A DNA stretch of 64,000 nt. Origin: Bacteroidia bacterium. Its GTDB lineage: Bacteria > Bacteroidota > Bacteroidia > UBA8524. The notes under the pieces are model-generated. The model had not been told where the DNA came from, did no database searches, and saw only the letters and a list, made by a program, of their open reading frames with translations. Location: NCBI GenBank assembly GCA_965222995.1, contig OZ244977.1, forward strand, positions 582,095 through 646,094, in the 5' to 3' direction. Of this stretch, positions 3,047-54,861 are shown in pieces; within the stretch, counting starts at the first letter, position 1; every line of letters begins with the position of its first letter. The translations under genes were made by a program, and so were the position numbers.

Positions 3047-4153
3047 ATGAGTAAAAAAGGTAAAATATTAGTAGCCATGAGTGGCGGCATAGATAGTACC
3101 GTTACAGCTATAATGTTGAAAGAAGAAGGGTATGAGGTGGTAGGAATTACCATGAAAACATGGGACTATGCCAGCTCAGGCGTTAATGGCAAAGAAACAG
3201 GCTGCTGCAGCTTAGATTCTATAAACGATGCACGTGCCATTGCCGTTGAGCATGGCATACACCACTTTATATTGGATATACGCGATGAATTTGGCGATTT
3301 TGTAATAGACAATTTTGTAGATGAATATTTGGCAGGTCGTACACCAAACCCTTGCGTACTTTGCAATACCCATATTAAGTGGGAAGCACTATTGAAACGT
3401 GCCGATATGTTGGATTGTGAGTTTATTGCCACAGGACATTATGCCAACCTAAATATTAACCCCATTAACAACAGGTATTATGTATCAAAAGGGTTGGATG
3501 AAAACAAAGACCAATCTTATGTTTTGTGGGGTTTGGCGCAAAAAAACTTAGCACGTACAAAATTCCCAATGGGTAAATACCATAAGCCTGATATAAAACA
3601 AATGGCAATTGATATGGGCTACCATGAATTAGCTAAGAAAAGCGAAAGCTATGAGATTTGCTTTGTGCCTGACAATGATTACCGAGGATTTTTGAAAAAT
3701 AGGGTAGAAGGCTTAGAAGAGCGTGTTGAAGGAGGAAACTTTGTAAGAGCAGACGGTACTATAATTGGTAAACACAGAGGGTACCCGTTTTATACTGTGG
3801 GGCAACGTAAAGGACTGGAAATAGCCCTTGGAGAGCCTATGTTTGTGCTTGAAATACAGCCAGATACAAATACAGTTGTTTTAGGCACTAAAGACGAACT
3901 GGAACGTAGTGGTATGCTTGTGCGTAGCATTAACTTACAAAAGTATGATGCTATAGATACCGAGTTAGACAGCATTACAAAAATAAGGTATAAAGACGCG
4001 GGTACACCTGCAGTTATCACTCAGAAAGAGAACAAAATGGAGGTGATATTCAATAGTAAAGTAAATGCTATTGCACCGGGGCAATCGGCAGTTTTTTATG
4101 AGGGGAACGATGTAATTGGCGGTGGTTGGATTGAAAAAAGTTTTGAGGTATAA
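3047..4153 (+). CDS. mnmA: tRNA-specific 2-thiouridylase MnmA
   Basis: 368 aa with a PP-loop (VAMSGGIDSTV) and the conserved CCSLDS, NPCVLCN and GHYA segments. Length and layout are typical of MnmA. Confidence 0.92.
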   Translation: MSKKGKILVAMSGGIDSTVTAIMLKEEGYEVVGITMKTWDYASSGVNGKETGCCSLDSINDARAIAVEHGIHHFILDIRDEFGDFVIDNFVDEYLAGRTPNPCVLCNTHIKWEALLKRADMLDCEFIATGHYANLNINPINNRYYVSKGLDENKDQSYVLWGLAQKNLARTKFPMGKYHKPDIKQMAIDMGYHELAKKSESYEICFVPDNDYRGFLKNRVEGLEERVEGGNFVRADGTIIGKHRGYPFYTVGQRKGLEIALGEPMFVLEIQPDTNTVVLGTKDELERSGMLVRSINLQKYDAIDTELDSITKIRYKDAGTPAVITQKENKMEVIFNSKVNAIAPGQSAVFYEGNDVIGGGWIEKSFEV

Positions 4154-4202: not shown

Positions 4203-5879
4203 ATGAAAACATATTTTGTAGTATTTTTTTTAATAGTATCTGTTTTTGCTAAAGCTGATTCTAATGACTCAATAAAATTTTGGGTATCCTTTAAAGACAA
4301 AAAAAGCACTCCATATTCTGTCAACAAGCCGGAAAAATTTCTTTCAAAAAGAGCAATTGAAAGACGCAAAACCTTCAACATAAAAATAACAGAGCAAGAC
4401 TTCCCTGTAAACCCTTCATACGTTAATAAAATAGAAAAAACAGGAGTAAAAGTGCTTAATAGATCGCGTTGGCTAAACGGGGTATCTATTTTAACTGCAG
4501 ATAATAAAAAGATTAAAGAAATTCTTGAACTTCCATTTGTAGCTGATGTGAAAAAGGTAGGGGTATATAGCAAAAAAGATAATTCTAAAATGGATTATTT
4601 AATGGAGCTTTTTATGAGTTTAGGAGGGGACAGCGATACTTCAAAAATTGATGGGCCGTACTACGGGGATGGTTTAAACCAAATACAAATGCTAAATGGT
4701 GTGGAAATGCACAAAAAGGGGTATACCGGCAAGGGCGTTGTTATTGCAGTACTTGATGGGGGGTTTATGAACGTACACAAAATAAAGACCTTCAGGCATT
4801 TGTTTATCAACAATCAAATATTAGGTGCCTGGGATTTTGTACAACTTGATAGTAATGTATACAACGATAATAATCACGGTATGAATGTACTAAGTTGTAT
4901 GGCTGCTAAAACTCCTTACAAAATGGTGGGTACTGCTCCTGATGCTCAATACTGGTTGTTAAGAACAGAAGATGCTAATACAGAGTATTTAATTGAAGAG
5001 TATAACTGGGCTAGCGGCGCTGAATTTGCTGATAGTGCCGGTGCAGATATCATAAACTCATCATTAGGGTATACCACTTTTGATGATAAAACTATGAACC
5101 ATACCTATAAAGACTTAAACGGGAAAAAATCGGTATGTACACAAGCTGCAGCAATTGCAGCACAAAAAGGAATTATAGTATGCAATGCTGCAGGAAATGA
5201 GGGAGATGATAAATGGAAGTATTTGGGTGCCCCTGCCGATGCCGTTGGAATAATTACTGTTGGTGGAGTGAATGGTGATAGTACACATGCTGAGTTTAGC
5301 TCGTATGGCCCAACTGCTGATGGTAGAATAAAACCCACAGTTGTTGCACAGGCAACCAAAGCTATTGTGTCTTCTGTTGACGATAAATTTTATGGTTCTC
5401 AAGGGACATCGTTTTCATCACCAATATTATGTGGTATGGTAGCTTGTTTGAGGCAAGCAAACCCAACAAAAACAGTTGATGAAGTTATAACAGCCATTCA
5501 GTTTAGTGCTACACAGTATCATGCCCCCGATACAGTTTTGGGTAGTGGAATTCCTAATTTTGTTTTAGCAAACCAATATTTAGGAGGTGATGAATACTTT
5601 GACTATAAAAGAAATCAAATAGCCGTTCCCCCTTCATCAATCTTTAAAGAAACCATAAGTTTCACCACATTTTCGCCCAAATACGATAGTATAGTTGTTA
5701 CCATAACCGATACAAAAGGGAATATAGTTTTACGTAAATCTATACTACCTGATGTGAAAAATCCGTTGGGTTTTCATAAAATTAATTTAAGCGAGGCAAA
5801 TAACTTTGCAACAGGAACTTATACCTGTACTGTAAAAATTGATAAAGAAGTAGCAGTATACAAATTAACCAAAGAATAA
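4203..5879 (+). CDS. Secreted subtilisin-like S8 serine peptidase, probable T9SS C-terminal sorting domain
   Basis: Signal peptide MKTYFVVFFLIVSVFA. The catalytic triad context is VLDGGF (Asp), HGMNV (His) and GTSFSSPILCGMVA (Ser). The C-terminal ~80 aa end in GTYTCTVKIDKEVAVYKLTKE, consistent with a Por-secretion CTD. Confidence 0.85.
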   Translation: MKTYFVVFFLIVSVFAKADSNDSIKFWVSFKDKKSTPYSVNKPEKFLSKRAIERRKTFNIKITEQDFPVNPSYVNKIEKTGVKVLNRSRWLNGVSILTADNKKIKEILELPFVADVKKVGVYSKKDNSKMDYLMELFMSLGGDSDTSKIDGPYYGDGLNQIQMLNGVEMHKKGYTGKGVVIAVLDGGFMNVHKIKTFRHLFINNQILGAWDFVQLDSNVYNDNNHGMNVLSCMAAKTPYKMVGTAPDAQYWLLRTEDANTEYLIEEYNWASGAEFADSAGADIINSSLGYTTFDDKTMNHTYKDLNGKKSVCTQAAAIAAQKGIIVCNAAGNEGDDKWKYLGAPADAVGIITVGGVNGDSTHAEFSSYGPTADGRIKPTVVAQATKAIVSSVDDKFYGSQGTSFSSPILCGMVACLRQANPTKTVDEVITAIQFSATQYHAPDTVLGSGIPNFVLANQYLGGDEYFDYKRNQIAVPPSSIFKETISFTTFSPKYDSIVVTITDTKGNIVLRKSILPDVKNPLGFHKINLSEANNFATGTYTCTVKIDKEVAVYKLTKE

Positions 5880-5938: not shown

Positions 5939-8326
5939 ATGAAAACAATTCTAAGGCGGTTTTCCGTTTTATTTATATTAGTCTTAATATCATTTATTTC
6001 AGCCCAATCACAGAGCTATATCTTAAGTGGTAAAGTTACTGATGAGCAAACAGGTGAGTCTCTTATTGGTGCGGCGATACTCAATATTAATAATGCAAAA
6101 CAATATGCTACCACTAATGAAAAAGGGTACTATCAGATTTTTTTAGAGCCGGGGAAGTATACTTTCAAAATAAGTTCAGTAGGTTATGAGGCTAAACAAG
6201 TAAGCCTTGAAATAAAAAAGAATACATCAAAAAACTTTCAATTAAAGCCCAAAGCCGTAAATGTGGGTGAAGTTATTGTTAAAAGTGAGGCAAGTGATAA
6301 AAATGTGAAGAGTATTGAGATGAGCAAAGTGCAACTCTCAGGCAAAACAATTAAAAAACTACCTGTAATTTTTGGGGAGACTGATGTACTGAAAACCATA
6401 ACACTTTTACCCGGTATAAAAAGTGGTGGTGAAGGAAATACAGGGTTTTATGTAAGAGGAGGAGGCCCTGACCAAAATTTAGTGCTGCTTGATGATGCTG
6501 TGGTATATAATGCTTCACATTTACTGGGTTTTTTCTCTGTATTTAATGGAGATGCAGTAGAAGATATAGAAGTAATAAAAGGAGGGATGCCGGCTAATTA
6601 TGGGGGAAGACTATCGTCAATTGTTAGTGTGGGGATGAAGGAGGGAGACAAATATAAATATAGAGTTAATGGGGGTGTGGGTTTAATTTCATCAAGATTA
6701 CAAGTTGAAGGACCTATACAAAAAGGAAAAAGTTCTTTTGTTATAAGTGGGCGAAGAACATATGGCGATGTTGTTGCAAGACCTTTTTTGGCGGATAGTT
6801 TAAAAGAGAATGCACTCTATTTTTACGATTTAAATGCAAAGCTTACTTTTAACTTAAGCCCTAAAGACCGTTTATACTTTACAGGGTATTTAGGTAGAGA
6901 TGTTTTTCGTTTTGTGAATAACCGTGTTAACCGTTTTACTTTTACAGTTGGATGGGGAAACCGTATAGCTTCAGCTAAGTGGAATCATATATATAACTCT
7001 AAACTTTCATCAAATGTTAGTCTTACTTATAATGATTTTGAGCTGGGGTCAAACGCTGAATTTGCCGGTGGTACTTTAGATGTATTTTCAGGTTTAAGAG
7101 ATATTACAGGCAAAGCAGACTATATATATATACCTCAAAAAAATATAAAGCTCAAGTATGGGATACAATACATATATCATACATTCATCCCCGGTATTTT
7201 ATCTGCTCAACAAGCAGGAGTAAATATCAATAGCGAAATAAACAGGCAGTTTGCTCACGAGGGTGCCGCTTATGTTTCATTAGACTGGGAGGCAAGTACC
7301 CGATGGTTTATTAATGCCGGCTTGCGTTATTCTGCTTTCGACCAAGTTGGTCCTTATAAACAACCCTTGTTTGATGAGTTAGGCGCACCCACCGGAGAGT
7401 TTCTAGAGTTTAGCAGAGGCACTTCAATACAATTATGGCATGGGGCAGAACCTCGATTTTCATTCCGCTATATTATAAATCCAACAACTTCAATAAAAGG
7501 CTCATATACACGAACTTTACAATATTTGCATTTAGCAACATCATCATCAGCAACCCTACCAACAGACTTATGGGTGCCTAGTTCTCGGTTAGTTAGACCT
7601 CAAATAGCAAATCAAGTAGTATTGGGGCTATTTAAGAACTTTAAAGAGGATACTTATGAAACATCTATAGAAACATATTACAAGCCCATGCAAAACCAGA
7701 TAGAGTTTAAGCCCGGAGCGCAATTGTTTTTTAATCAGAATTTAGAAAACGAAATGGTATTTGGCTCAGGATTATCGTATGGGGTTGAGTTCTTAATAAA
7801 GAAAGTGAAAGGGAAGACAACAGGCTGGATTGGGTATACATGGAGTAAAACTACCCGTACCTTTGATATATTTAATAATGGAGACCCTTATTTTTATAGA
7901 TACGACCGTAGACACGATATATCGGTAGTTATAAGCCACCAAATCAATAAAAAATGGGATTTTAATTTTGTGTTCGTTTATGGTTCAGGCAATGTATTAA
8001 CACTTCCACAACAACGCTTTACTTATAGTTTTGGAGTAAGCCCACAAGCACCTGCACCATTCTTTAATATTATTGATAGGTATGTAGATATTGCCAATTA
8101 CCGCATGCCTGCATACCATAGAGCAGATATTTCTTTTAACTATACTCCTAAGCCTGATGCTAAAAAATTTAAAAGTAGCTGGAACTTCTCCATCTATAAT
8201 TTATACAGCAGGGCAAATCCATACTTTATATACTTTGACCCTGATGTGTTAACCCAAACAGTTAAAGCACGTATGGTGTATCTTTTCCCTATTATACCAT
8301 CAGTAACGTGGAATTTTAAATTTTAA
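5939..8326 (+). CDS. TonB-dependent outer membrane receptor (CarboxypepD_reg-like N-domain + plug + barrel)
   Basis: Signal peptide MKTILRRFSVLFILVLISFISAQS. GKVTDEQTGESLIGAAI is a carboxypeptidase-regulatory-like motif. Plug-like segments follow. The C-terminal barrel ends in an aromatic residue (NFKF). An upstream in-frame ATG at 5894 is the alternative start. Confidence 0.9.
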   Translation: MKTILRRFSVLFILVLISFISAQSQSYILSGKVTDEQTGESLIGAAILNINNAKQYATTNEKGYYQIFLEPGKYTFKISSVGYEAKQVSLEIKKNTSKNFQLKPKAVNVGEVIVKSEASDKNVKSIEMSKVQLSGKTIKKLPVIFGETDVLKTITLLPGIKSGGEGNTGFYVRGGGPDQNLVLLDDAVVYNASHLLGFFSVFNGDAVEDIEVIKGGMPANYGGRLSSIVSVGMKEGDKYKYRVNGGVGLISSRLQVEGPIQKGKSSFVISGRRTYGDVVARPFLADSLKENALYFYDLNAKLTFNLSPKDRLYFTGYLGRDVFRFVNNRVNRFTFTVGWGNRIASAKWNHIYNSKLSSNVSLTYNDFELGSNAEFAGGTLDVFSGLRDITGKADYIYIPQKNIKLKYGIQYIYHTFIPGILSAQQAGVNINSEINRQFAHEGAAYVSLDWEASTRWFINAGLRYSAFDQVGPYKQPLFDELGAPTGEFLEFSRGTSIQLWHGAEPRFSFRYIINPTTSIKGSYTRTLQYLHLATSSSATLPTDLWVPSSRLVRPQIANQVVLGLFKNFKEDTYETSIETYYKPMQNQIEFKPGAQLFFNQNLENEMVFGSGLSYGVEFLIKKVKGKTTGWIGYTWSKTTRTFDIFNNGDPYFYRYDRRHDISVVISHQINKKWDFNFVFVYGSGNVLTLPQQRFTYSFGVSPQAPAPFFNIIDRYVDIANYRMPAYHRADISFNYTPKPDAKKFKSSWNFSIYNLYSRANPYFIYFDPDVLTQTVKARMVYLFPIIPSVTWNFKF

Positions 8327-9828: not shown

Positions 9829-12800
9829 TTATCGTAGAAGAGTAACGGTCCCACTAAATGTATATGGTTTACCTGCGAAGCTGGTTACATTCACCACATA
9901 CGTATACACATCTTGCTGAGCGAACTCCCCTTTAAAGAATCCGTCCCAACCCTCAGTAATATCCGTAGAGTAATATACCTTTTCACCCCAACGGTTAAAC
10001 ACAAACACCTCAAACGTCTCATAACCCTCCGCACTTACATAGAACCTGTTATTACGTTCATCCCCGTATAAATTAGGCGTAAACGCATTCGGGATATACA
10101 CCGTAATATCCGGGCCGATAATCAACGTATCCAAATGTTCAGACGAACAACCCTTATCCGTAATCGCCGTTAAACGCACAATATACGTACCCGTATCCGT
10201 AGGATACTCAAACATAGGACTAAACGCCTTAGAATTCGTATTACTCAAATCACCGAACTCCCAAGTATAATCCAGCGTTTGTCTGTTCGCCGGAGCATCC
10301 ACCACAGTTAAATTCGTAAACTGAATATCCGTAGCCGCCACCGTAGTAACCTCACGCGACATAGAAAAATTAGCATACGGCGTAGGATCAATAGTAACAT
10401 TCACAGGCGTAGCATCACGGAAACACGACGTATTTCTATTCGTAACCCTCAAAGTAATCGTATACGTACCCTCACTATTATACACATGCGTTTCAGAAGC
10501 ATTAGAACCCGTATTATTCGCACCACTGGCAGGATCCCCGAAATTCCACACATAATCCGCCTCAGATGCCTGATCCGTCAACGAAGAAAAATCAACCGGT
10601 CTAGGCTCACAACCACCCAGCGGCGGTAAAATTTCAGCCGTAGGAATAGGATAAATAGAAATATCAAACGATTGAGAAGCAGGTGCACACACATCATTCG
10701 CAATAGTATTCGTAGTAAACACACTCACAGAAAACTTCTGCGTAGCATTATCCTGCGAACCCGGCGTATACACAGGCGCATCCGCCGTAGTACTGCTAAA
10801 AGCACCATCCCCTTGCGAAGACCACTGCACCCCGGTAGCCGCCGTATACGCAGCCGAAAGATTAAACGGCTCACCCTCACAAGCAGCAGGAGGAACAGTA
10901 ACATTCAACGTAGGCGTTTCCTGCACCTCAATAGAACCATTCGCCTCCACCGTACACTGGTAGAAATTCGTTACCGAATACTTCAAATCAAACGTACCCG
11001 GACCCGAATTACCCGCATCAAACTGACCACCGGCACTCACCGTACCGTTTTGCGAGCTCCATACCCCGTTAGAAGGAGAACCGTAAGCCGTAACAGAGAA
11101 GAATCCAACATCCTCACACTGTTTAGGAATAGCCGCAATAGCCGTTTGAGGGATAGGGAATATCGTAACCTCCATAGAATCCGTTACCGGACAATTATTA
11201 TTCGGAATATCATACTCATAATATACCCAGCTTTTTGCAGGAACCGTAGCCGTAGACGGGAACAAGCCCGGATTAAAACTAGTACCCTGCAAGCCCATAG
11301 CCCCTAGCTTTTGCGACCAAGTACCCCCCGCAGGAGCAGCACCCGACACCACATTCAAATCCACAGCAGAAGCATTTTGGCATAACGCAGGCGGAATACC
11401 CGCATCCACATTAGGCACCTCACGTACCGTAACCTTAGCCGTATCATAATTAATACACTTAGTAGACGTACTGGTAACCCGCATAACCATATTATACGTA
11501 GCCTTCTGAGCCAACTTACTCAAATCTAAATTGTAACCACCCAAACCGGGCGACAACGCATTATTAGCTTGCGTATTCGGCGAAGACCACACAATAGTAG
11601 AATTAAACTGATTCGTATTCGGGCCGATATGATTACCCATAGTAATCACCCCGTCATACCCGCAATAACTACCATCCAAAGTCTCAGCAATAGGCAAAGG
11701 ATTTACAGGCACAGCCACCACCTTGCTATTCTTACAACCCTGGTTATCCGTAACAGAATATTTCACCATATGTTGAGTAGGTCCCGGAGCACCCGGGTTA
11801 GCACCCGCACTATCCGGATAGAAGAAGCCACCGTTAACAATACTCGGTTTCACAACCCCTTCCCAAGTACCCGTAGTAATCGTAGGCCAAACCAAAGCCT
11901 CAGACGTTAAACTAAACGGAGGGTCATTTACACAACGTGCAGAAACAGGAGCAAAATTAATCTCCGGCAAATCACTTTTAGTAACCTGTACCGTATCCGT
12001 ATTCGTACAAGTAACCCCCTGATACGTTCTGGTAGCCTTAATATGCACCTCACGGTCACCCGTAACCACAAAACTATGCTGGTTAAACGTAGACACCGGT
12101 GTATTCAAATTAGGAACAATATACCACTCATACGTATCCGCACCCGTAGCCGTCATAAACACCGTATCCTGGTCACAAATAGTCTGGTTAGGACCACCAT
12201 CCACAGGCACCGTATTCACAAACAAATTCATCGTATCGTAATTACTACAGCCCAAACTATCCGTTAGCTGTAAAATATACTCACCGCTATCCGAAATATT
12301 CGTAAAACGAGAAGTATCCCCGTTACTCCATAAGAACGTATACGGAATAGAATCATTTCCACCATCCAAAGTTTGGATAGCATCATAACAAATACGGAGA
12401 TCCGGACCGATACTCACAGGAGGAAGCGGTTTCCAGAATACATCCACCGTATCACTATTCTCACAACCGTCCTGGTCTTTTACAGCCACCCAGAACGTAG
12501 AATCCCCTCCTGGATTAATAATAGCGCTAGAAGAAGTATCCCCCGAACTCCAGGTATACTCATAATGAGGAATACCGTCCCAGGTAATCGCATTCAAAGT
12601 CATCGGATTACCGTCACAAATCAAAGTATCAAACGGTAAATCCACCTGAACAAACGGGTCAATATCAATCGTATCCACAAAAGCATTAATACAAGGCGTA
12701 GACGTACGCAAGGTTAAAAACAAACGGTTTTTACCCGGCTGCATACGAATTGTATCCTGCTTTTTACTTGCAAAAGCAATATTTCTGTTATTAGAATCCT

Positions 12801-14085
12801 TCACCAACCAATCGTGCGTCAGTCCCGGATAATTATTCTTCTTCGGCGTATAATCCACAGCCACCAAACCACAATTCAGTTTAGTCCATTGGATAGTAGC
12901 CTCAGGACTTTCCCGAACCGTAATACTAAAGGCCCGGATAGACTGACCTGCCAACGGGCAAGCATCATCCTTAGCCGTAATGGTAAACGTATAAGGGATA
13001 TTACTTACATCAGCATTCGTAGGCGTCCAGCAGACACTACCCGTGGCCAAACGTTTAGAGCCGTTGGTATGTGTAAACACCGCCCCTCGAATACCCTTGT
13101 TCCAGGAAATTTTAACCGTATCCTTCTTATCATTATCCTCAGTTTCAATATCAATACACGTTTGTTGTCCCGCACAAGCAATGGCACTTTGTCCCTTAAT
13201 ACGGGGTACCTTATTGTTCGGACAAGGGACGACGATAATCTGCATATCCCGTCGGGTAATACCCACTTTGGTCATCACCCCGTTAATCTTTCGCCACTCA
13301 GTAACCTCAAGTACCAAAACAGTAACTTGGTTTTGAACGGTAGGACGGAAGCTTAAGTCACCGGTTACAGGGTCTAAACGGAAGCCAGCGGGTTGGTTAA
13401 GACCTGCATTAGGGAATCCTAAGAAAGAAATAGGACGTTGAGCACTCCATGAACCACTGTAAGATATCTTGGCTCCCTGACCGCTTAAAGGCTCTACCAA
13501 ACGGTAAGAAAGAGAGTCTCCATTATCTACAGTATCCAGAGCACCGTTGTTAAACACAAAATCCTGACCTACACAAATAAGGGCAGCAGGTTTAGAAGTA
13601 AATACAGGTGAACTGTTACAAGGAGTTTGGCATTTATTTAATACAGCCTCGGTATAAAAGTTCTGGTTAGCTGCTCCGGTAGTAATATTACTGTTACGGC
13701 AACATTGAGACCAGCTTAAGGTTACCTCACAGCAGTTAAGTACACTTAAGTCTATAATGCCTCTAAAAACGTGCTCTTCAATACCGTAAGCATAGCTACC
13801 GCTACATCTACTTTGGGTAGGACAGCGGGAATCTATACCCGTAATGTCTTTCCTGCTTATAAGTGGTAAGGTAAAACTACGGGTACCTGCATTACAACGT
13901 GCCTGTATAGGTGAGTTGCTTAACTGTATACCGTTACAATCACGATATACGGTAGCAGTTACTTCATATCTTCCGTTACCCAAACACTTGTAGGTAATAT
14001 CACTACCCATTACGTGGGTAGCCTGTACTTCAGTTACAGTAAATATACCAGCAAGGGCAAAAATTAGTAGTAATATTTTTTTCAT
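9829..14085 (-). CDS. Large (1418 aa) cell-surface adhesin-like protein with type-B T9SS (gliding-motility-associated) C-terminal domain
   Basis: Signal peptide MKKILLLIFALAGIFTVTEVQA. The body is Cys-, Thr-, Gly- and Asn-rich and repetitive. The C-terminal ~90 aa (ITVYIPNAFTPN...DERNNRF...FNRWGEKVY...GWDG...YTYV) match the CHU_C/gliding-associated CTD pattern. Confidence 0.85.
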   Translation of the reverse strand: MKKILLLIFALAGIFTVTEVQATHVMGSDITYKCLGNGRYEVTATVYRDCNGIQLSNSPIQARCNAGTRSFTLPLISRKDITGIDSRCPTQSRCSGSYAYGIEEHVFRGIIDLSVLNCCEVTLSWSQCCRNSNITTGAANQNFYTEAVLNKCQTPCNSSPVFTSKPAALICVGQDFVFNNGALDTVDNGDSLSYRLVEPLSGQGAKISYSGSWSAQRPISFLGFPNAGLNQPAGFRLDPVTGDLSFRPTVQNQVTVLVLEVTEWRKINGVMTKVGITRRDMQIIVVPCPNNKVPRIKGQSAIACAGQQTCIDIETEDNDKKDTVKISWNKGIRGAVFTHTNGSKRLATGSVCWTPTNADVSNIPYTFTITAKDDACPLAGQSIRAFSITVRESPEATIQWTKLNCGLVAVDYTPKKNNYPGLTHDWLVKDSNNRNIAFASKKQDTIRMQPGKNRLFLTLRTSTPCINAFVDTIDIDPFVQVDLPFDTLICDGNPMTLNAITWDGIPHYEYTWSSGDTSSSAIINPGGDSTFWVAVKDQDGCENSDTVDVFWKPLPPVSIGPDLRICYDAIQTLDGGNDSIPYTFLWSNGDTSRFTNISDSGEYILQLTDSLGCSNYDTMNLFVNTVPVDGGPNQTICDQDTVFMTATGADTYEWYIVPNLNTPVSTFNQHSFVVTGDREVHIKATRTYQGVTCTNTDTVQVTKSDLPEINFAPVSARCVNDPPFSLTSEALVWPTITTGTWEGVVKPSIVNGGFFYPDSAGANPGAPGPTQHMVKYSVTDNQGCKNSKVVAVPVNPLPIAETLDGSYCGYDGVITMGNHIGPNTNQFNSTIVWSSPNTQANNALSPGLGGYNLDLSKLAQKATYNMVMRVTSTSTKCINYDTAKVTVREVPNVDAGIPPALCQNASAVDLNVVSGAAPAGGTWSQKLGAMGLQGTSFNPGLFPSTATVPAKSWVYYEYDIPNNNCPVTDSMEVTIFPIPQTAIAAIPKQCEDVGFFSVTAYGSPSNGVWSSQNGTVSAGGQFDAGNSGPGTFDLKYSVTNFYQCTVEANGSIEVQETPTLNVTVPPAACEGEPFNLSAAYTAATGVQWSSQGDGAFSSTTADAPVYTPGSQDNATQKFSVSVFTTNTIANDVCAPASQSFDISIYPIPTAEILPPLGGCEPRPVDFSSLTDQASEADYVWNFGDPASGANNTGSNASETHVYNSEGTYTITLRVTNRNTSCFRDATPVNVTIDPTPYANFSMSREVTTVAATDIQFTNLTVVDAPANRQTLDYTWEFGDLSNTNSKAFSPMFEYPTDTGTYIVRLTAITDKGCSSEHLDTLIIGPDITVYIPNAFTPNLYGDERNNRFYVSAEGYETFEVFVFNRWGEKVYYSTDITEGWDGFFKGEFAQQDVYTYVVNVTSFAGKPYTFSGTVTLLR

Positions 14086-34736: not shown

Positions 34737-35165
34737 ATGGTGTTGCAACAAGAACATACAAAAGCAGTAGATACACTTAAAAGCCATAAGCTGCGTATCA
34801 CAGAAACCCGAACTAAGGTTTTAGGCTTATTTATGAACGGACATTTAGCCCTGAAACAGTCTGATGTTGAAGATGCTTTGGGTACTAAGTACGACCGTGT
34901 TACTATTTATCGTACTTTAAATTCTTTTTTAGAAAGTGGCATTATCCATAAAATACCTGACGATAGCGGGGCTACTCAATATGCTTTGTGCGATAATTGT
35001 GATGCACACGAACACCATGATGAGCATATCCATTTTAAATGCACCAAGTGCAATAAGCTGGAGTGTTTAGACCACTATACCGTACCTAAATTTGAAGTTC
35101 CTTTAGGATATACTGTAGCCTCTGCCGATATGGTAGTAATAGGCATTTGTGCAGAGTGTACTTAG
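34737..35165 (+). CDS. Fur-family transcriptional regulator
   Basis: A winged-helix N-domain (LRITETRTKVLGLF, RVTIYRTLNSFLESGIIHKI) and a C-terminal metal site (HEHHDEH, CTKCNK...C...C). Confidence 0.85.
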   Translation: MVLQQEHTKAVDTLKSHKLRITETRTKVLGLFMNGHLALKQSDVEDALGTKYDRVTIYRTLNSFLESGIIHKIPDDSGATQYALCDNCDAHEHHDEHIHFKCTKCNKLECLDHYTVPKFEVPLGYTVASADMVVIGICAECT

Positions 35166-36091
35166 TCTTTTAGTTCTCTAGAAATTAAGTTCTCATATTG
35201 CTGAAACTTATAGTTTTCTGATGTTGCGTTTGAAGAACCAACAACATGCCGAATAATTTTTCCATTTTTATCTACAAGAAACTGTTGGGGAACTCCTTGA
35301 ATATTTAAATGTGATGTGAGTTTTCCATCAACATCATAAAGTATTTTAATACCTTTATTAGCAAAATATTTATTTGTAAAGGCTTGTTTGTAAGTATCTA
35401 TCCTGCCTGTATTTAGTAATATTACTTCAAAATTCTCTTTTTTAAATTTATCTTGTACTTTAGTAAGTAATGGTAATTGTTCGATACAAGGCAAGCAACT
35501 GTTTCTATAAAATTCAAATAGAATAATTTTGCCTTGTAAATTGCCAATATTAGTTTTAATTGAGTCTTTGTTTAAAAGTGCATGTGGCGGGGTGCCATTA
35601 TATATATTTGTATTCAGTTTTGGTGATGTTAAGTTATCGATTAACTCATCCCAACGCCCTATTGAGTTGGCATAAATTATATTACTAATGGATACAAAAA
35701 CAATAAAAACTATAACTATGTAAGTTTTTTTTAATGAATGGACTAAATAACCTAAGTAGAACGAAAGGGTTGCCCAAAAAGGTAGTAGAGGCAAATCATG
35801 CCAAAACATTATTTGATGAGAATTATATGTTGAAAGTATGATGTATAAAGAAGGCAAGAGTAATAAAATAACCTCTAGCAATTTTATTTTTTTTGATTTA
35901 ACTATAAGACCTATAATAAAAAACAGAGTTGAAATTACTGTTGGTCTAAAGTATATATTTTCAATATAGCCGCTTCTAGTAAAACTCCATACTGTAACAA
36001 CTCCAAATCCTAGAACTAATAAGATTATATATTTTAATATTTTTTTCATTTTAAATAGTTCCAGTTTAATTAAGTTTATTAACTGGAACAA
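35162..36091 (-). CDS. Polytopic membrane protein with C-terminal TlpA-like thioredoxin (thiol-disulfide oxidoreductase) domain
   Basis: Roughly five N-terminal TM segments are followed by a thioredoxin fold with the active site CLPC (LFEFYRNSCLPCIEQLPLL) and a cis-Pro region (IQGVPQQFLVDKNGKI). A possible alternative start lies at 36049 (MKKILKYIILL). Confidence 0.75.
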   Translation of the reverse strand: MFQLINLIKLELFKMKKILKYIILLVLGFGVVTVWSFTRSGYIENIYFRPTVISTLFFIIGLIVKSKKIKLLEVILLLLPSLYIILSTYNSHQIMFWHDLPLLPFWATLSFYLGYLVHSLKKTYIVIVFIVFVSISNIIYANSIGRWDELIDNLTSPKLNTNIYNGTPPHALLNKDSIKTNIGNLQGKIILFEFYRNSCLPCIEQLPLLTKVQDKFKKENFEVILLNTGRIDTYKQAFTNKYFANKGIKILYDVDGKLTSHLNIQGVPQQFLVDKNGKIIRHVVGSSNATSENYKFQQYENLISRELKD

Positions 36092-36109
36092 TTACGACAC
36101 TGTAATTTA

Positions 36110-36763
36110 CTATGGGATATTCAGTGCAATAGGGCATAAACCATCACAAGCCCACCTCCAAAAAGTGCCACAACCCGACTTTTTCTTTTTACATGAGTTT
36201 CTTTTTTCACAATCACCTAAAAAAGGGATGCACCAATCTGAACCAGAAGAACATTTACAATTATTATTATCATCCTCTTCAAATATATCATCATTTAAAT
36301 AGTTGGGGTCAATGTCATCTAATGTATTTACTATTCTTTTAATAGTATTTTCATTGAAGTTCGGAATAGCTGATGCCACCCATGTTGGTTCAAATGTATT
36401 TTTAAAACTGATGTCTTCAGCACTCCCATCGGTGAATAAATTAATACTCAACTGGTTAAAAATACTATTCAAATCACTTAACTGTGCAGAGTTCCATACT
36501 GTTAATCCTAACACCTGGTTTTTCTTATCCAACCAAATATTATATTTCTCTGTGGGCGTACAAGTATTGTAAGTAGCTTTCCTTACTGATGGAGAAAGAG
36601 TTAGGAGATATGCTCTTGTAATTGTTGTTTTACGTTGAAAGGCTACTTTTTCATCACTATTATTAATTTGAGGTTCTGTTTCAGACTGAGTGGTTTTAGT
36701 GCAAGAACTCATTATTAATAGCCCGGCTATTAATAATGCAAATTGACTTTTTAATTGTTTCAT
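36110..36763 (-). CDS. Lipoprotein with Cys-rich C-terminal module (9 Cys in last ~50 aa)
   Basis: Lipobox LLIMSSC. The C-terminus is NNNCKCSSGSDWCIPFLGDCEKRNSCKKKKSGCGTFWRWACDGLCPIALNIP. It lies 18 nt upstream of the TlpA-like gene on the same strand. Confidence 0.6.
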   Translation of the reverse strand: MKQLKSQFALLIAGLLIMSSCTKTTQSETEPQINNSDEKVAFQRKTTITRAYLLTLSPSVRKATYNTCTPTEKYNIWLDKKNQVLGLTVWNSAQLSDLNSIFNQLSINLFTDGSAEDISFKNTFEPTWVASAIPNFNENTIKRIVNTLDDIDPNYLNDDIFEEDDNNNCKCSSGSDWCIPFLGDCEKRNSCKKKKSGCGTFWRWACDGLCPIALNIP

Positions 36764-36913: not shown

Positions 36914-36945
36914 AAAAAACCCCTTCACTTTGTAAGCAAAGGGGC
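36914..36945 (-). terminator. Intrinsic terminator downstream of lipoprotein gene 36981..37745
   Basis: The minus strand reads GCCCCTTTGCTTACAAAGTGAAGGGG followed by TTTTTT. Confidence 0.5.
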
Positions 36946-36980
36946 TCAACCTATATACTAATTACAATTATGAAAAAGAT

Positions 36981-37745
36981 TTAATCCCAGTGTACATGAT
37001 ACTCAACATCAGCATCGTTGTTTTTCAGGTCAAAGGCTTCAATAATTAATTCGTATTCACCTTTTGGCCAAGATGGATCAAAAACAATTTTCTCAGTAAA
37101 ATTTTCTCCCGTCCCGCTTAAGTTTCCATCAATATCTACATAATTTTTTTCTGTTCCTTCATGTATAAGCTTAATTTCATAACTCTTCAAGCCTTTATCA
37201 TCTCCTACAGTACCCTCAATTGTAATTTCATTACTATTTTTTAATTCTATTTCATTATTTGCATCAGGTGCAGGAGTGGTATTTACATTAAGAGTTGGGG
37301 CTATTAAATCTTCGGCGTTTTTTATTACTATTTCAGAAACAATAAAGTCAGCCTCATTGCCGGCTTTGTCAATTACTCGCATCGTAAAATCATAATTTCC
37401 AGCAGCTATATCAATGGGTAAAGTAATTTTAAAATTCAAATTAGCCGTTTTACCACTCAAATTAATAATACTGTCCCACTCAAAAGCAGGTGAGCCATTT
37501 TTCATGTGGGCATGTCCATCAAAGTTTTCGTGTATTTCTATCTTAGCCTGGCTAAGCTCAGTATCATCGTTAATGGTAGCTGAAATTGTAATATCATTCC
37601 CAGATGTAAACTCATCATCTTTTGAAGGGCTATTTAGCTGTACTGATGGCTTAGTGGTATCTTTTGGGCTGTTGTCATCATCTTTTTTACATGATGAGAT
37701 ACCTATTAATAGTAAGGCTGCAAGTGCTAAACTTAGTTTTTTCAT
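36981..37745 (-). CDS. Lipoprotein with two tandem Ig-like repeat domains (DUF4625-like)
   Basis: The start at 37745 gives MKKLSLALAALLLIGISSC. There are two repeats of ~90 aa (ITISATINDDTELSQAKIEIHE / ITIEGTVGDDKGLKSYEIKLIHE). The family name is from memory. Confidence 0.6.
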   Translation of the reverse strand: MKKLSLALAALLLIGISSCKKDDDNSPKDTTKPSVQLNSPSKDDEFTSGNDITISATINDDTELSQAKIEIHENFDGHAHMKNGSPAFEWDSIINLSGKTANLNFKITLPIDIAAGNYDFTMRVIDKAGNEADFIVSEIVIKNAEDLIAPTLNVNTTPAPDANNEIELKNSNEITIEGTVGDDKGLKSYEIKLIHEGTEKNYVDIDGNLSGTGENFTEKIVFDPSWPKGEYELIIEAFDLKNNDADVEYHVHWD

Positions 37746-37783
37746 TTCTATAGTTATTATTTTATATGACTCTTGTTTTTGAA

Positions 37784-37821
37784 ACATTGTTGCAAATATA
37801 ATTAAATGCAACAATGTTGCA
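37784..37821. promoter_or_regulatory. Composite palindromic operator-like element (TGTTGCA half-sites x3)
   Basis: The sequence is ACATTGTTGCA-aatataattaaa-TGCAACAATGTTGCA. It lies in the divergent promoter region between the lipoprotein gene (minus) and the ECF sigma gene (plus). The core TGCAACA-A-TGTTGCA is a perfect palindrome also found at 43113..43127. Confidence 0.45.
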
Positions 37822-37957
37822 AGTAAAAATGCATTTATCAAAGATTGATTATATTGAGGCTATAGATATTTTACATTAAGAGAAATATTTTTAAGTGCGA
37901 TTACAACCCGCCAACCTTAAATACCGTTAATAACATAAACGACCTTCTCCACACGGG

Positions 37958-51501: not shown

Positions 51502-51634
51502 AAGTAATTAAATTTGATTGTTGGCGTTTTATACTTACCGTTGAATATATTTTCGTATAAAATTATCGAAATATTTTTCTTATTTCGGTTGAAATAAGTA
51601 TAATTATTTATCAATTCATTTAAAATTTTAGACT

Positions 51635-52123
51635 ATGAAAAAAATTGCATTAATCACTTTAATTTCATTTTTCAGTATCACATACTCTTATGCGTGGGTC
51701 AAAACTACTACTACAAAGACGAATGGAGGGCTGTTCGGGTATTCTTCTATTCAAGAACAATTAAGTGGACCCCCTACTTCTACAAACTGCACTTTTACTT
51801 TAAAATGTTGGGACCCAGGGTGGACAAAATGTAAATTTATTTATTATGATATTGCCAGTACATCTCAATATGGTTGTCAGTCGATTGTGATAAATAACCA
51901 AGGAGATGATGATTGGTGGGATGTTTTAAATGATGATATTAATAATCAAATTACTAATGGTCATTCAAGCGGTACTTTTGTGAGACAGGATATACAAATA
52001 ACACACCCCACAACTAACAACCTTGAAAATGCAGTAGTAACTTGGTCTTACTCTAGCTCTAATGATATTCTTGAAATGACGGTTTACAGTTATGGAGAAG
52101 CACAAGGTTTGGGAGTCATTTAA
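51635..52123 (+). CDS. Small secreted 4-Cys protein, paralog A
   Basis: 162 aa with a signal peptide. Cys spacing is C-x5-C-x7-C-x16-C. It shares the block SGTFVRQDIQITHPTTNN with paralog B. Confidence 0.6.
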   Translation: MKKIALITLISFFSITYSYAWVKTTTTKTNGGLFGYSSIQEQLSGPPTSTNCTFTLKCWDPGWTKCKFIYYDIASTSQYGCQSIVINNQGDDDWWDVLNDDINNQITNGHSSGTFVRQDIQITHPTTNNLENAVVTWSYSSSNDILEMTVYSYGEAQGLGVI

Positions 52124-52150
52124 AGTAAAAACTATCAAAACAATATAATT

Positions 52151-52633
52151 ATGAAAAAAGTAATAACATTAGTAACCGTTTCCCTAATATTTTTGGGTGA
52201 AGCAAATGCTTGGATAAAAATAAATTATCAAAAAGATAGGTGGAGACTTTTTGGGTATAAAAATGTACAAGAGAATTTTTCAAAATCAGGGACAAACTGT
52301 TCTTTTAGCTTGAACTGTAATAATCCTGGATTAAGCAGATGTAAATTTACTACTTATGACATTGAAAATCCTTCCTTATATGGCTGCCAAGCCATTGTAG
52401 TTAATAATTCCAGCGATAATGATTGGGCAGGAGTGTTAGATACTGATATAAAGGCTCAAATTGCAAATGGTAATAACAGTGGAACATTTGTTAGACAAGA
52501 TATACAAATAACGCATCCAACAACCAATAATTCAGAAAATGCGGTTGCGGTATGGTCTTATACTGCTGCCACAGATATAATAGAAATTTATATTTATAGC
52601 TACAATGAGGCTGTTGAGTTAGATATTATATGA
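52151..52633 (+). CDS. Small secreted 4-Cys protein, paralog B
   Basis: 160 aa with the same Cys spacing and the identical 18-aa block. Many synonymous differences at the nucleotide level indicate an old duplication kept under selection. The TGA stop overlaps the next ATG. Confidence 0.6.
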   Translation: MKKVITLVTVSLIFLGEANAWIKINYQKDRWRLFGYKNVQENFSKSGTNCSFSLNCNNPGLSRCKFTTYDIENPSLYGCQAIVVNNSSDNDWAGVLDTDIKAQIANGNNSGTFVRQDIQITHPTTNNSENAVAVWSYTAATDIIEIYIYSYNEAVELDII

Positions 52634-53844
52634 AAGGATTAATATTTTTAATAACGCTACGGTTAGTCTTTATAACTGTAGCGTTATTGTATTCGGTTAG
52701 TTGTTTTTCTCAAGGCTGCCATGAAACAGAATTTTCAGATTTTTCAGTTTTAGGATATAAAGGCAACCCCTTTAATGAGAACTATATTATTAGACAAAAA
52801 GGAGATAAAATTTATGCTGTGAAAACAGGTAATACTGCTTTTCTTATACAAAGTATTAGAGAGTTTGATACATTATGGGTTTATAATATAAAAACGAAAA
52901 ATATTAGTTTTTTCAAAGTGTCTAGTCAAGACATGAAGAGGAAGTTTAAAAACGATACTGGTAAAGATTTTTATATTAGTAATGACGGCAAACTTTATGT
53001 TCAGACTTATAGGTCAATTCACATTTACATTAAAAATGATAATGGTTTCAATTTTTTTAAATCAATAAAACCAAAATTTTCTTACTCATATATTTTAGGC
53101 GAAATTGGAAAGTTTCTGATATTATATGAAGGTTATAATTATCACCCTTTAGACCAAAGAGAAAAGGTTATTATCTCAAAGTTTTCTACAGTGAGTGATA
53201 AAGTTGTGAAGTCTATTTACCCCAAAATGCTTGGGGTTGAGTTAACCCACTCAAATAAACGCTTTTGTGATATATATAAAAATACTATTCTTTTTGCACA
53301 GCCCTTTAGCGATACTATTTGCATTTATAACAGTGAGTTGGAACGTATTGGCAATATTGAACTTAAACACAAAGTTGACTCTACAATAAAGATAAACTAT
53401 AAAGAATATAGCACCGACCAAATACAGAAACTATTAATGGAGGATTATCTGTATAAAAGGAACATTAAAGTTGATGTATTTGGAGATACTTTATTAGTTC
53501 TTTTTAAAAAGAAGTTTCAAAACTTTAGGGGTAGTGTTTGGTTTGATGTATACACTCATAAAAACAACACTTGGCAGTTAACAGATACTTCAAAGTTTAT
53601 ATCGTTTACGTTTGACAGTACTAAGAAGGTAACACCAACAACTACCTATGTGCCTTACATTATAGATAATAACCAAATTATAGTATATGAAGGTAATATG
53701 TATGAACTAATTAATAAGCATATTGAAATAGGAAAACCCATTTCATATAAAGAATATAACAACCTTGTTGATGTAGCATTTTATGAAAATACTTTTAAAG
53801 TAGCATTGCAAAAGCAGCCTTTAAAGTGTTTATTAAATCCTTAA
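52630..53844 (+). CDS. Hypothetical membrane-anchored or secreted protein (404 aa), translationally coupled to paralog B
   Basis: N-terminal hydrophobic segment LIFLITLRLVFITVALLYSV. The body is rich in Y/K/N/F. No motif I can assign. Confidence 0.5.
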   Translation: MKGLIFLITLRLVFITVALLYSVSCFSQGCHETEFSDFSVLGYKGNPFNENYIIRQKGDKIYAVKTGNTAFLIQSIREFDTLWVYNIKTKNISFFKVSSQDMKRKFKNDTGKDFYISNDGKLYVQTYRSIHIYIKNDNGFNFFKSIKPKFSYSYILGEIGKFLILYEGYNYHPLDQREKVIISKFSTVSDKVVKSIYPKMLGVELTHSNKRFCDIYKNTILFAQPFSDTICIYNSELERIGNIELKHKVDSTIKINYKEYSTDQIQKLLMEDYLYKRNIKVDVFGDTLLVLFKKKFQNFRGSVWFDVYTHKNNTWQLTDTSKFISFTFDSTKKVTPTTTYVPYIIDNNQIIVYEGNMYELINKHIEIGKPISYKEYNNLVDVAFYENTFKVALQKQPLKCLLNP

Positions 53845-53942
53845 TTATAAATCAATTGAAAAAGTAATTAAATTTGATACTAACATTTTGGCATCTAATG
53901 ATGTCTTATAGAAAAAGACTTAATTTATACTCAATAATAAAA

Positions 53943-54812
53943 ATGAAAAAAGTATTACTTAGTGCATTTGCTATAATGCTAATTTTCTCAGCTTGTAAGC
54001 CGGAAGACAACACAGTTGAGCCTACTACAACACCAGACCCAAATAATGGAGGTGGTAATGAACCACAAGAAATTGTAGTACCTGAAGTTAACATGTCTAT
54101 GGTAACTAAAGTAACAGGGTCTCTTTGCCCTCCTTGCGGAAGTTGGGGATGGACTGCTTTTGAAAGCCTAATTAACACGAATAAAGATGATGCATTTTTT
54201 GTAGGGGCTTATAGTGATAACTACGTAGCCAGATTGTTTATTACTGATGAGGCAGAAACTATGGAACGTGCTTGGGGAGTTACGGGTTTCCCAACATTTG
54301 CAGCCAATGGAATGCCTCAACTAGACCGTAATAGTGGAGTGAATGTTCAAAGCGAAATTAGTAAAACCAATGCTGTTGTAGCTTCACACAAATCAGGTGA
54401 AGTATTTGTGAATAGTGGCTTCCGTACTAGTGTTGATGCTAATAATATGATGACTATTGAAACCAAAACTAAATTTTTCAAAGATGTAGGCGGTGATGTT
54501 TTTGTTGCTGTTTATGTTATTGAAGACAAAGTTATTGGTGCCCAAAGCGGTCATCCTGATGGTGCTAATGCTTCTCACCACTATGTATTACGTGGTGCTG
54601 CTAAACTGGATGGTGCTGCAAAAGCTGAGACATGGGGATACCAAATAGGTAACCCGGGTACTACTATTACTCCTGCAAATACTGAAGTAGAAAACACTTT
54701 TACTATTGATGTAAGCGGATACGACCAAGCTAATACATCCGTAGCAGTTGTTGTTTATAGAAAAGTAGGTGTGCGTTACCAATTTTTAAATGCGTATAGC
54801 AATCAAAAATAA
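53943..54812 (+). CDS. Lipoprotein with thioredoxin-like features (CPPC motif + GFPT cis-Pro-like loop)
   Basis: The start at 53943 gives MKKVLLSAFAIMLIFSAC. The motif SLCPPCGSWGW is followed ~60 aa later by VTGFPTF. It has a ~150-aa C-terminal extension. Confidence 0.55.
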   Translation: MKKVLLSAFAIMLIFSACKPEDNTVEPTTTPDPNNGGGNEPQEIVVPEVNMSMVTKVTGSLCPPCGSWGWTAFESLINTNKDDAFFVGAYSDNYVARLFITDEAETMERAWGVTGFPTFAANGMPQLDRNSGVNVQSEISKTNAVVASHKSGEVFVNSGFRTSVDANNMMTIETKTKFFKDVGGDVFVAVYVIEDKVIGAQSGHPDGANASHHYVLRGAAKLDGAAKAETWGYQIGNPGTTITPANTEVENTFTIDVSGYDQANTSVAVVVYRKVGVRYQFLNAYSNQK

Positions 54813-54834
54813 AAATCATAAAAACAATAAATTA

Positions 54835-54861
54835 AGCCTCGCCTACAGCGGGGCTTTTTTT
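54835..54861 (+). terminator. Intrinsic terminator ending the four-gene cassette
   Basis: AGCCTCGC-ctaca-GCGGGGCT (8 bp with one G-U pair) followed by T7. Confidence 0.6.

Follow-up and report, generated by a model that had tools for sequence, protein, structure and literature searches.

A fulvocin C-related bacteriocin precursor and its five-helix thioredoxin partner in a Bacteroidia genome

Fulvocin C counts among the first bacteriocins to have been sequenced, around 1981, and the purified peptide corresponds to a core alone, of some 45 residues. The present analysis deals with two adjacent genes in a 64,000-nucleotide stretch of a Bacteroidia genome (the window), one encoding a lipoprotein that ends in a core of this type (the precursor), the other a membrane protein (the partner) made of five transmembrane (TM) helices followed by a thioredoxin domain, an architecture abbreviated below as 5TM-Trx. 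We regard it as rather probable that both genes form a bacteriocin cassette, in which the thioredoxin domain handles the disulfides whereas the TM module has a separate task, either self-protection or docking. Concerning fulvocin C of Myxococcus fulvus, PMC8708641 cites Hirsch 1977 and Tsai and Hirsch 1981. A full-text literature search for "fulvocin" returned the 1977 and 1981 papers and, beyond these, passing mentions only, and the searchable literature held nothing on the gene, precursor, activity, processing, maturation or immunity of fulvocin C, nor on any partner gene of the family.

Bacteriocins served by an oxidoreductase of their own are familiar from Gram-positive bacteria, with BdbA/BdbB for sublancin, PedC for pediocin and SdbA in Streptococcus gordonii. 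Among systems with experimental data, the closest is the bacteroidetocin (class IIf) locus of gut Bacteroidales (Coyne et al. 2019, PMC6671954), where four genes specify the peptide, an ABC/C39 exporter, a thiol oxidoreductase and a protein with five TM helices. Both accessory genes, those of the TM protein and of the oxidoreductase, are required for full toxin activity, and the authors argued that the oxidoreductase forms disulfides, since Bacteroides lack a general disulfide-forming machinery (PMC6671954).

The precursor and its partner

Both open reading frames (ORFs) lie on the minus strand, with the following parts.

36110..36763, minus strand: gene of the fulvocin C-related bacteriocin precursor, a lipoprotein of 217 aa matching NF033852
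36701..36763, minus strand: signal peptide with lipobox LIMSS-C21, residues 1-21, read from the sequence
36326..36622, minus strand: conserved helical pro-domain, residues 48-146
36113..36262, minus strand: fulvocin C-type core, residues 168-217, with 8 Cys and 8 K/R vs 4 D/E
35162..36049, minus strand: partner gene, 295 aa, five TM helices and a C-terminal TlpA/ResA-like thioredoxin domain, predicted periplasmic
35627..36049, minus strand: five-helix TM module, residues 1-141, from the AlphaFold2 (AF2) model; no Cys
35165..35602, minus strand: thioredoxin-fold domain, residues ~150-295
35486..35497, minus strand: active-site CLPC, C185 and C188, read from the sequence

The lipoprotein matches the NCBIfam model NF033852, "bacteriocin fulvocin C-related protein", with 102.1 bits for a cutoff of 35, over its residues 61-210 and model positions 1-149 of 150, and no Pfam family matched it. 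This membership of a named bacteriocin family had escaped an earlier note made on the same DNA. Exhaustive HMMER searches gathered relatives in 385 cluster representatives, nearly all of 180-240 aa; word-index protein searches found just 2 relatives of the lipoprotein and few full-length partners. The AF2 model of the lipoprotein has a mean predicted local distance difference test (pLDDT) score of 85.4. Alignments of 50 and 90 members share a single plan consisting of a signal peptide, a helical pro-domain with conserved residues R50, W77, K80 and F136, a variable linker, either acidic or rich in Gly, and a core of about 45 residues. A lipobox-like motif occurs in 100 of 150 family representatives.

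The last 50 residues of the lipoprotein, NCKCSSGSDWCIPFLGDCEKRNSCKKKKSGCGTFWRWACDGLCPIALNIP, contain eight of its ten cysteines (C169, C171, C178, C185, C191, C198, C206 and C210), the other two being C21 and C68. The cysteine-rich C-terminal module of lipoprotein 36110..36763 had been correctly located by the earlier note, which had counted nine Cys in it where there are eight. In both alignments these eight are invariant or nearly so, C169 being present in at least 90% of the sequences, and the GCG motif is conserved besides them; the conserved positions of the core are Cys and Gly only, with no His, Asp or Glu ligand conserved in the family alignment. Because the cysteines are near-invariant in the homologues and relatives occur in 385 cluster representatives, the alignments indicate that the eight-Cys module is a genuinely conserved domain rather than an accidental run of Cys. 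Between the window core and the fulvocin C core of a Myxococcus genome retrieved by the scan described below (locus L073; the L numbers designate loci), the alignment needs no gap and brings all eight Cys into register. The Myxococcus core, ANCICSTASDYCPILTFCTTGTACSY...TGCGTGWVYACNGDCLY, is split by a frameshift in the assembly, and we take it to agree with the sequence of fulvocin C. At L073 (Myxococcus sp. CA023, ~4860-5000, minus strand) the core is divided between two frames, stops precede it closely and no in-frame pro-domain is visible, as in a pseudogene or owing to an assembly error.

For the partner, the longest ORF (35162..36091) starts from a TTG located 18 nucleotides past the stop of the lipoprotein gene, and the distance of 18 nucleotides previously given holds for this ORF. 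The identical database protein (P0003) and all the homologues begin at the ATG at 36049, which is most likely the start, giving a protein of 295 aa and a gap of 60 nucleotides between the genes. In the AF2 model (pLDDT 79.8), five helices (residues 2-25, 34-49, 57-85, 88-102 and 108-141) are followed by a thioredoxin fold, so that the five or so TM helices and the C-terminal thioredoxin domain with CLPC, already recognized in the earlier note, are borne out by the modelled helices and by Pfam matches above cutoff (Redoxin, AhpC-TSA and Thioredoxin_8). Stretches rich in K/R at the N terminus and in the loops 50-56 and 103-107 imply a topology with the N terminus inside and the C terminus outside, which would place the thioredoxin domain in the periplasm. 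The only two Cys of the partner are those of CLPC (residues 185-188), none occurring in residues 1-184. Across 23 partners there is no variation at C185, C188 or P254, the last of which we take for the cis-Pro of the fold. In fold searches the closest relatives of the thioredoxin domain are DsbE, ResA, SdbA and TlpA, with SdbA as one of the top structural matches and 4txo also among the matches. Since the scores remain far under the NCBIfam cutoffs of ResA (59.5 vs 170), TlpA (40.8 vs 230) and DsbE (35.4 vs 123), the partner is, by these profiles, a member of the thioredoxin fold class and not an orthologue of the enzymes of cytochrome or copper maturation.

The TM modules of 25 partners align together, with P66, an LP motif at 86-87 and G100 conserved. 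No Pfam family and no significant PDB sequence match was found for this module, and the fold searches with the whole model, dominated by the thioredoxin domain, gave no match to the DsbD, CcdA or VKOR families. A relay of reducing equivalents by the TM domain, in the manner of DsbD or CcdA, had been suggested previously. Because the TM module is free of Cys in the window protein and shows no conserved Cys column among the 25 homologues, this suggestion has to be abandoned: judging from its residues, the module cannot relay electrons by thiol exchange as DsbD, CcdA, VKOR or DsbB do.

Genomic context of the pair

One genome per species was scanned with a degenerate DNA pattern for the core motif GCGTxWxxxCxGxC only. 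The scan yielded at least 120 loci, about half of them chance matches in GC-rich genomes, and a hidden Markov model of the family kept 56 as true. Among the matches listed, a 5TM-Trx ORF lies directly downstream on the same strand at 21 of the 56 true loci and, within Bacteroidota, at 17 of the 20 evaluable fulvocin-like loci, whereas none of 64 chance-match control loci has a TlpA-like gene. At each of the 21 loci the downstream ORF encodes a protein of ~275-310 aa with 4-5 hydrophobic helices in its N-terminal part and, around residue 180, a CxxC. Outside Bacteroidota, the partner also stands downstream in genomes of Chloroherpeton (Chlorobiota) and of Pyrinomonadaceae and Blastocatellia (Acidobacteriota). 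The three Bacteroidota exceptions are L083, whose partner (6141-7028) combines the TM module with a thioredoxin-like domain devoid of CxxC, L112, whose partner (3651-4097, 145 aa) is the TM module alone, as is also that of L124 (7244-7687), and L041, which has no partner and only a DUF1573 lipoprotein.

Looked up from the other side, all six partner families examined adjoin a fulvocin-like gene; they comprise the close relatives L004 and L005, the Fibrivirga loci L137 and L138, L139, where the order of precursor and partner is swapped, and L140. The co-occurrence that the earlier note had proposed to examine thus came out strongly positive in both directions, and its view of a substrate accompanied by a dedicated periplasmic oxidoreductase gains support from this two-way linkage. 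The pairwise divergences of partner and precursor rise together (Mantel r 0.72; 0.47 once the close relatives are removed; 0 of 5000 permutations as high), a correlation to which shared phylogeny contributes. As judged from these genomes, the pairing of a fulvocin-type precursor with a 5TM-Trx protein is conserved over Bacteroidota and some neighbouring phyla, strains of Chitinophaga, Fibrella and Flavobacterium being among its carriers. In terms of gene content the cassette is autonomous, because the 72 genes flanking the 21 loci have no family in common, and neither an exporter, a protease nor a regulator is conserved among them.

Depending on the locus, an optional third gene (at least seven loci) encodes a DUF1573 lipoprotein with a CxC motif and a length of 110-143 aa, and usually lies between precursor and partner. 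The DUF1573 genes were located as follows.

L022, 1186-1569: DUF1573 gene
L053, 1055-1495: DUF1573 gene
L063, 2143-2532: DUF1573 gene
L110, 4207-4638: DUF1573 gene
L121, 452-868: DUF1573 gene
L138, 3583-3978: DUF1573 gene
L139, 2142-2477: DUF1573 gene
L041, 3003-3500: DUF1573 gene

No 5TM-Trx partner was found at the Actinomycetota loci examined. In this phylum (L008, L019, L031, L038, L082, L087, L095 and others) the fulvocin-like ORFs are of ~330 aa and have neither a thioredoxin nor a 5TM neighbour; in L082, L087 and L095 they form tandem pairs.

At three further loci, L001-L003, the partner is intact, with 50% identity over its full length, and occurs on six contigs, whereas the toxin (precursor) gene upstream of it has decayed through stops and frameshifts and has lost its pro-domain. 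The remnant, at ~5700-5930 in L001 and likewise in L002 and L003, is situated within a gap of 447 nucleotides. It retains pieces of the C-terminal end of the toxin, namely ISPNY*NNDQFDTER, KCSCSIG, GCGTM and WGCDGMCNLALTTP*, distributed over two frames with stops between them. In the closer relatives the toxin is more conserved (71-72% identity) than the partner (56-65%). Since the toxin is the better conserved of the two in those relatives and has nevertheless decayed in L001-L003, the sequences suggest that selection maintains the partner on its own at these loci. L140 may represent a second case: there, on one short contig, a fulvocin-like gene (121-795) with fewer core Cys is cut by a stop into 131 and 67 aa, and the partner alongside it is intact. 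Taken together, the orphan partners, those reduced to the TM module and the one devoid of CxxC are what one would expect if the partner were an orphan immunity gene.

The immediate surroundings of the pair and another cassette of the window comprise the following features.

36914..36946, minus strand: hairpin, CCCCTTTGCTTACAAAGTGAAGGGG followed by TTTTTT, after the upstream DUF4625 gene; likely a terminator and the upstream edge of the cassette
36981..37841, minus strand: DUF4625 lipoprotein with a His-rich motif, upstream of the precursor gene
34737..35165, plus strand: Fur/Zur-like regulator, convergent with the partner gene and overlapping its end by 4 nucleotides
51635..54812, plus strand: two secreted paralogues of ~160 aa and a protein of 404 aa (no family for any of them), then an Omp28-family lipoprotein with CPPC

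A scan with the consensus terminator (loop of 3-8 nucleotides) missed the hairpin at 36914..36946, probably owing to its longer loop, and found no terminator-like site on the minus strand between the two genes. With a hairpin upstream and no terminator between them, the two genes appear to be transcribed together. Upstream of the lipoprotein gene, the Bacteroidota -7 motif TAnnTTTG was not found; its only two copies in the region, at 36287 and 36398 on the minus strand, lie within the lipoprotein ORF and upstream of the partner, so that a separate transcription of the partner is a possibility. A sigma-70 promoter scan of the region performed no better than shuffles. The Fur-family and DUF4625 genes of the window are mere local context: L004, the closest relative, alone has kept them, and 21 other loci lack them. 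The cassette at 51563..54861, in which the earlier note had seen the same logic, turned out to be of another kind at family level, its two 160-aa paralogues, its 404-aa protein and its Omp28-family lipoprotein being neither fulvocin-like nor TlpA-like. Elsewhere in the window, the segment ~10000..14000 has a GC content of 0.43-0.47 vs ~0.35 in the rest and probably corresponds to a ribosomal RNA operon.

Possible functions of the partner

In the explanation that we favour, the first gene would produce a precursor exported via the Sec and lipoprotein pathway, in which a lipobox-bearing signal peptide is followed by the helical pro-domain, then by a linker of acidic character and finally by the cationic eight-Cys core (~50 residues). 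The second gene would produce a dedicated accessory protein, whose five TM helices would hold the thioredoxin domain on the periplasmic side, where this domain would act on the eight core Cys and most likely form or isomerise the four disulfides of the emerging precursor. The TM module would constitute a separate unit which most likely guards the producer or holds the precursor at the membrane; a role of its own is assumed because of the partners reduced to TM helices (L112, L124), the partner of L083 without CxxC and the intact orphan partners of L001-L003. In this scheme the data show the family memberships, the make-up of the domains and the two-way linkage of the genes, and we infer the redox direction, the role in immunity and the release of the core. 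The bacteroidetocin precedent, the thioredoxin-fold enzymes of bacteriocins in Firmicutes and the restriction of the partner to certain phyla all favour, by analogy, a folding or isomerase role for the thioredoxin domain.

Several observations weigh against this reading. An intact partner beside a decayed toxin speaks against a role in maturation only. The redox direction is not readable from the sequence, and the relatives TlpA, ResA and CcmG are reductants; moreover, the dipeptide of the CxxC varies among the partners (CLPC, CGVC, CGIC, CGPC, CGYC and others). Fulvocin-like genes of Actinomycetota, Thermoanaerobaculia and Longimicrobiales have no 5TM-Trx partner at the loci examined. With regard to self-protection, the bacteroidetocin TM protein and oxidoreductase gave no immunity (PMC6671954), and that TM protein is not detectably related to the TM module of the window partner. 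The flanks of the 21 loci hold no conserved protease or exporter, so that the release of a free peptide is hypothetical, and the antibacterial activity of the Bacteroidota members is a prediction only.

The main rival is a purely reductive immunity, in which the partner would take no part in the maturation of the toxin, and would instead capture the fulvocin-type peptide at the inner membrane and reduce its disulfides, thereby protecting the producer and also cells that have lost the toxin, with the general CcdA/DsbD system keeping the CxxC reduced. We hold this to be possible, although clearly less probable than the folding scheme. To our knowledge, no redox-based immunity to a bacteriocin has been described, and the partner would then be, with a similarly low probability, a new kind of immunity protein, its TM module capturing the peptide and its thioredoxin domain reducing the disulfide knot; the same protein might in addition fold the toxin of the producer. 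An orphan immunity role would explain that the partner is kept intact after the decay of the toxin, as in L001-L003 and perhaps L140. The partner also occupies the position typical of an immunity gene in a cassette offering no other candidate, its relatives TlpA, ResA and CcmG are reductants, and a conserved polytopic TM module exceeds the needs of a mere anchor. Conversely, the partners lacking the CxxC or the entire thioredoxin domain (L083, L112, L124) suggest that protection needs no redox chemistry. Furthermore, the occurrence of the partner in Bacteroidota, Chlorobiota and some Acidobacteriota, and not at the Actinomycetota loci examined, fits folding better than immunity, because immunity would be needed everywhere, whereas Bacteroides lack general disulfide-forming enzymes; Actinomycetota possess DsbA-like enzymes of this sort. 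In addition, the homologous oxidoreductase of bacteroidetocin is needed for the activity of the toxin and gives no immunity (PMC6671954).

Two other explanations have much less to recommend them. In a metal-handling module, the Cys-rich tail would bind zinc or copper, the TlpA-like protein would keep its thiols reduced and the Fur-family regulator would exert control. The Fur/Zur-like gene, convergent with the partner gene over 4 nucleotides, and the upstream DUF4625 lipoprotein with its His-rich motif would agree with this, as would the reduction of the copper chaperone ScoI by TlpA and the presence of 4txo among the fold matches. Against it stand the homology of the core to the fulvocin C peptide, the lack of conserved His, Asp and Glu ligands in the core, the score of the partner under the TlpA equivalog cutoff (40.8 bits vs 230) and the fact that the Fur and DUF4625 genes, retained in L004 and missing from the 21 other loci, are not conserved partners; the binding of metal by the module, raised earlier as an alternative, is accordingly very unlikely. 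Even slightly less credible is a mere chance adjacency, according to which the downstream gene would be a housekeeping TlpA paralogue meeting the needs of cytochrome or general periplasmic redox chemistry. TlpA-like genes are numerous in Bacteroidota, and the NCBI label of the partners reads "TlpA family protein disulfide reductase". However, the linkage is shared by several phyla, with the two genes close together on one strand, and has outlasted a swap of their order. It is absent from the control loci (0 of 64 with a TlpA-like gene), a specific 5TM architecture goes along with the fulvocin-like gene, and the scores fall under the ResA, DsbE and TlpA cutoffs. The linkage data therefore largely refute chance adjacency.

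Comparison with known systems

Databases already have names for the two gene families, and there are known bacteriocins that come with a thiol-disulfide oxidoreductase of their own. The cassette of a precursor with a 5TM-Trx protein, the lipoprotein architecture with a pro-domain, the 5TM module and the orphan-partner pattern appear to be undescribed. The cassette gives a precursor architecture and a conserved accessory protein to the fulvocin family, whose divergent members number in the hundreds and occur in Bacteroidota, Acidobacteriota, Actinomycetota and other phyla. A lineage-specific thioredoxin travelling with a disulfide-rich substrate offers a compact system for studies of oxidative folding in the periplasm, and the orphan-partner pattern allows a direct test of a thioredoxin as an immunity factor. 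The cassettes also represent an unexplored source of putative disulfide-knotted antibacterial peptides.

With fulvocin C, the window core shares the eight-Cys pattern CxCSxxSD[WY]C...C...C...GCGTxW..C.G.C. It differs in forming the C-terminal end of a lipoprotein of 217 aa that also has a conserved pro-domain, and the Myxococcus locus examined, unlike the window locus, lacks a 5TM-Trx neighbour. TlpA, ResA and CcmG/DsbE resemble the partner in their fold, their CxxC, the conserved proline taken as the cis-Pro and their extracytoplasmic location. They possess a single-helix anchor where the window partner has a polytopic one, and the genomic neighbour of the latter is a bacteriocin precursor gene and not a set of cytochrome biogenesis genes. 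BdbA/BdbB, PedC and SdbA belong to other organisms, have other anchors and serve other bacteriocin families, and none of them has a five-helix N-terminal module.

The bacteroidetocin system is the nearest in composition, since there, too, a secreted toxin of Bacteroidota that contains Cys is associated with a TlpA-like oxidoreductase anchored in the membrane and with a five-TM protein. Its oxidoreductase (171 aa, L135) matches the thioredoxin profile of the partners with an E value of 2e-10. Homology of the bacteroidetocin five-TM protein to the TM module of the window was considered and rejected (hhalign probability 0.1%; nothing significant with hmmsearch). The bacteroidetocin toxin has 57 aa, a GG leader, four Cys and ABC/C39 export, whereas the window precursor has a Sec/lipoprotein signal, an eight-Cys core and no transporter, none being conserved in the flanks of the 21 loci either. 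The TM protein and the oxidoreductase, encoded by separate genes in bacteroidetocin loci, form one polypeptide in the window, a fusion that parallels the still unexplained need for both proteins in the production of bacteroidetocin. By analogy, the same functional trio seems to recur here with non-homologous parts, two of which are fused in the cassette of the window.

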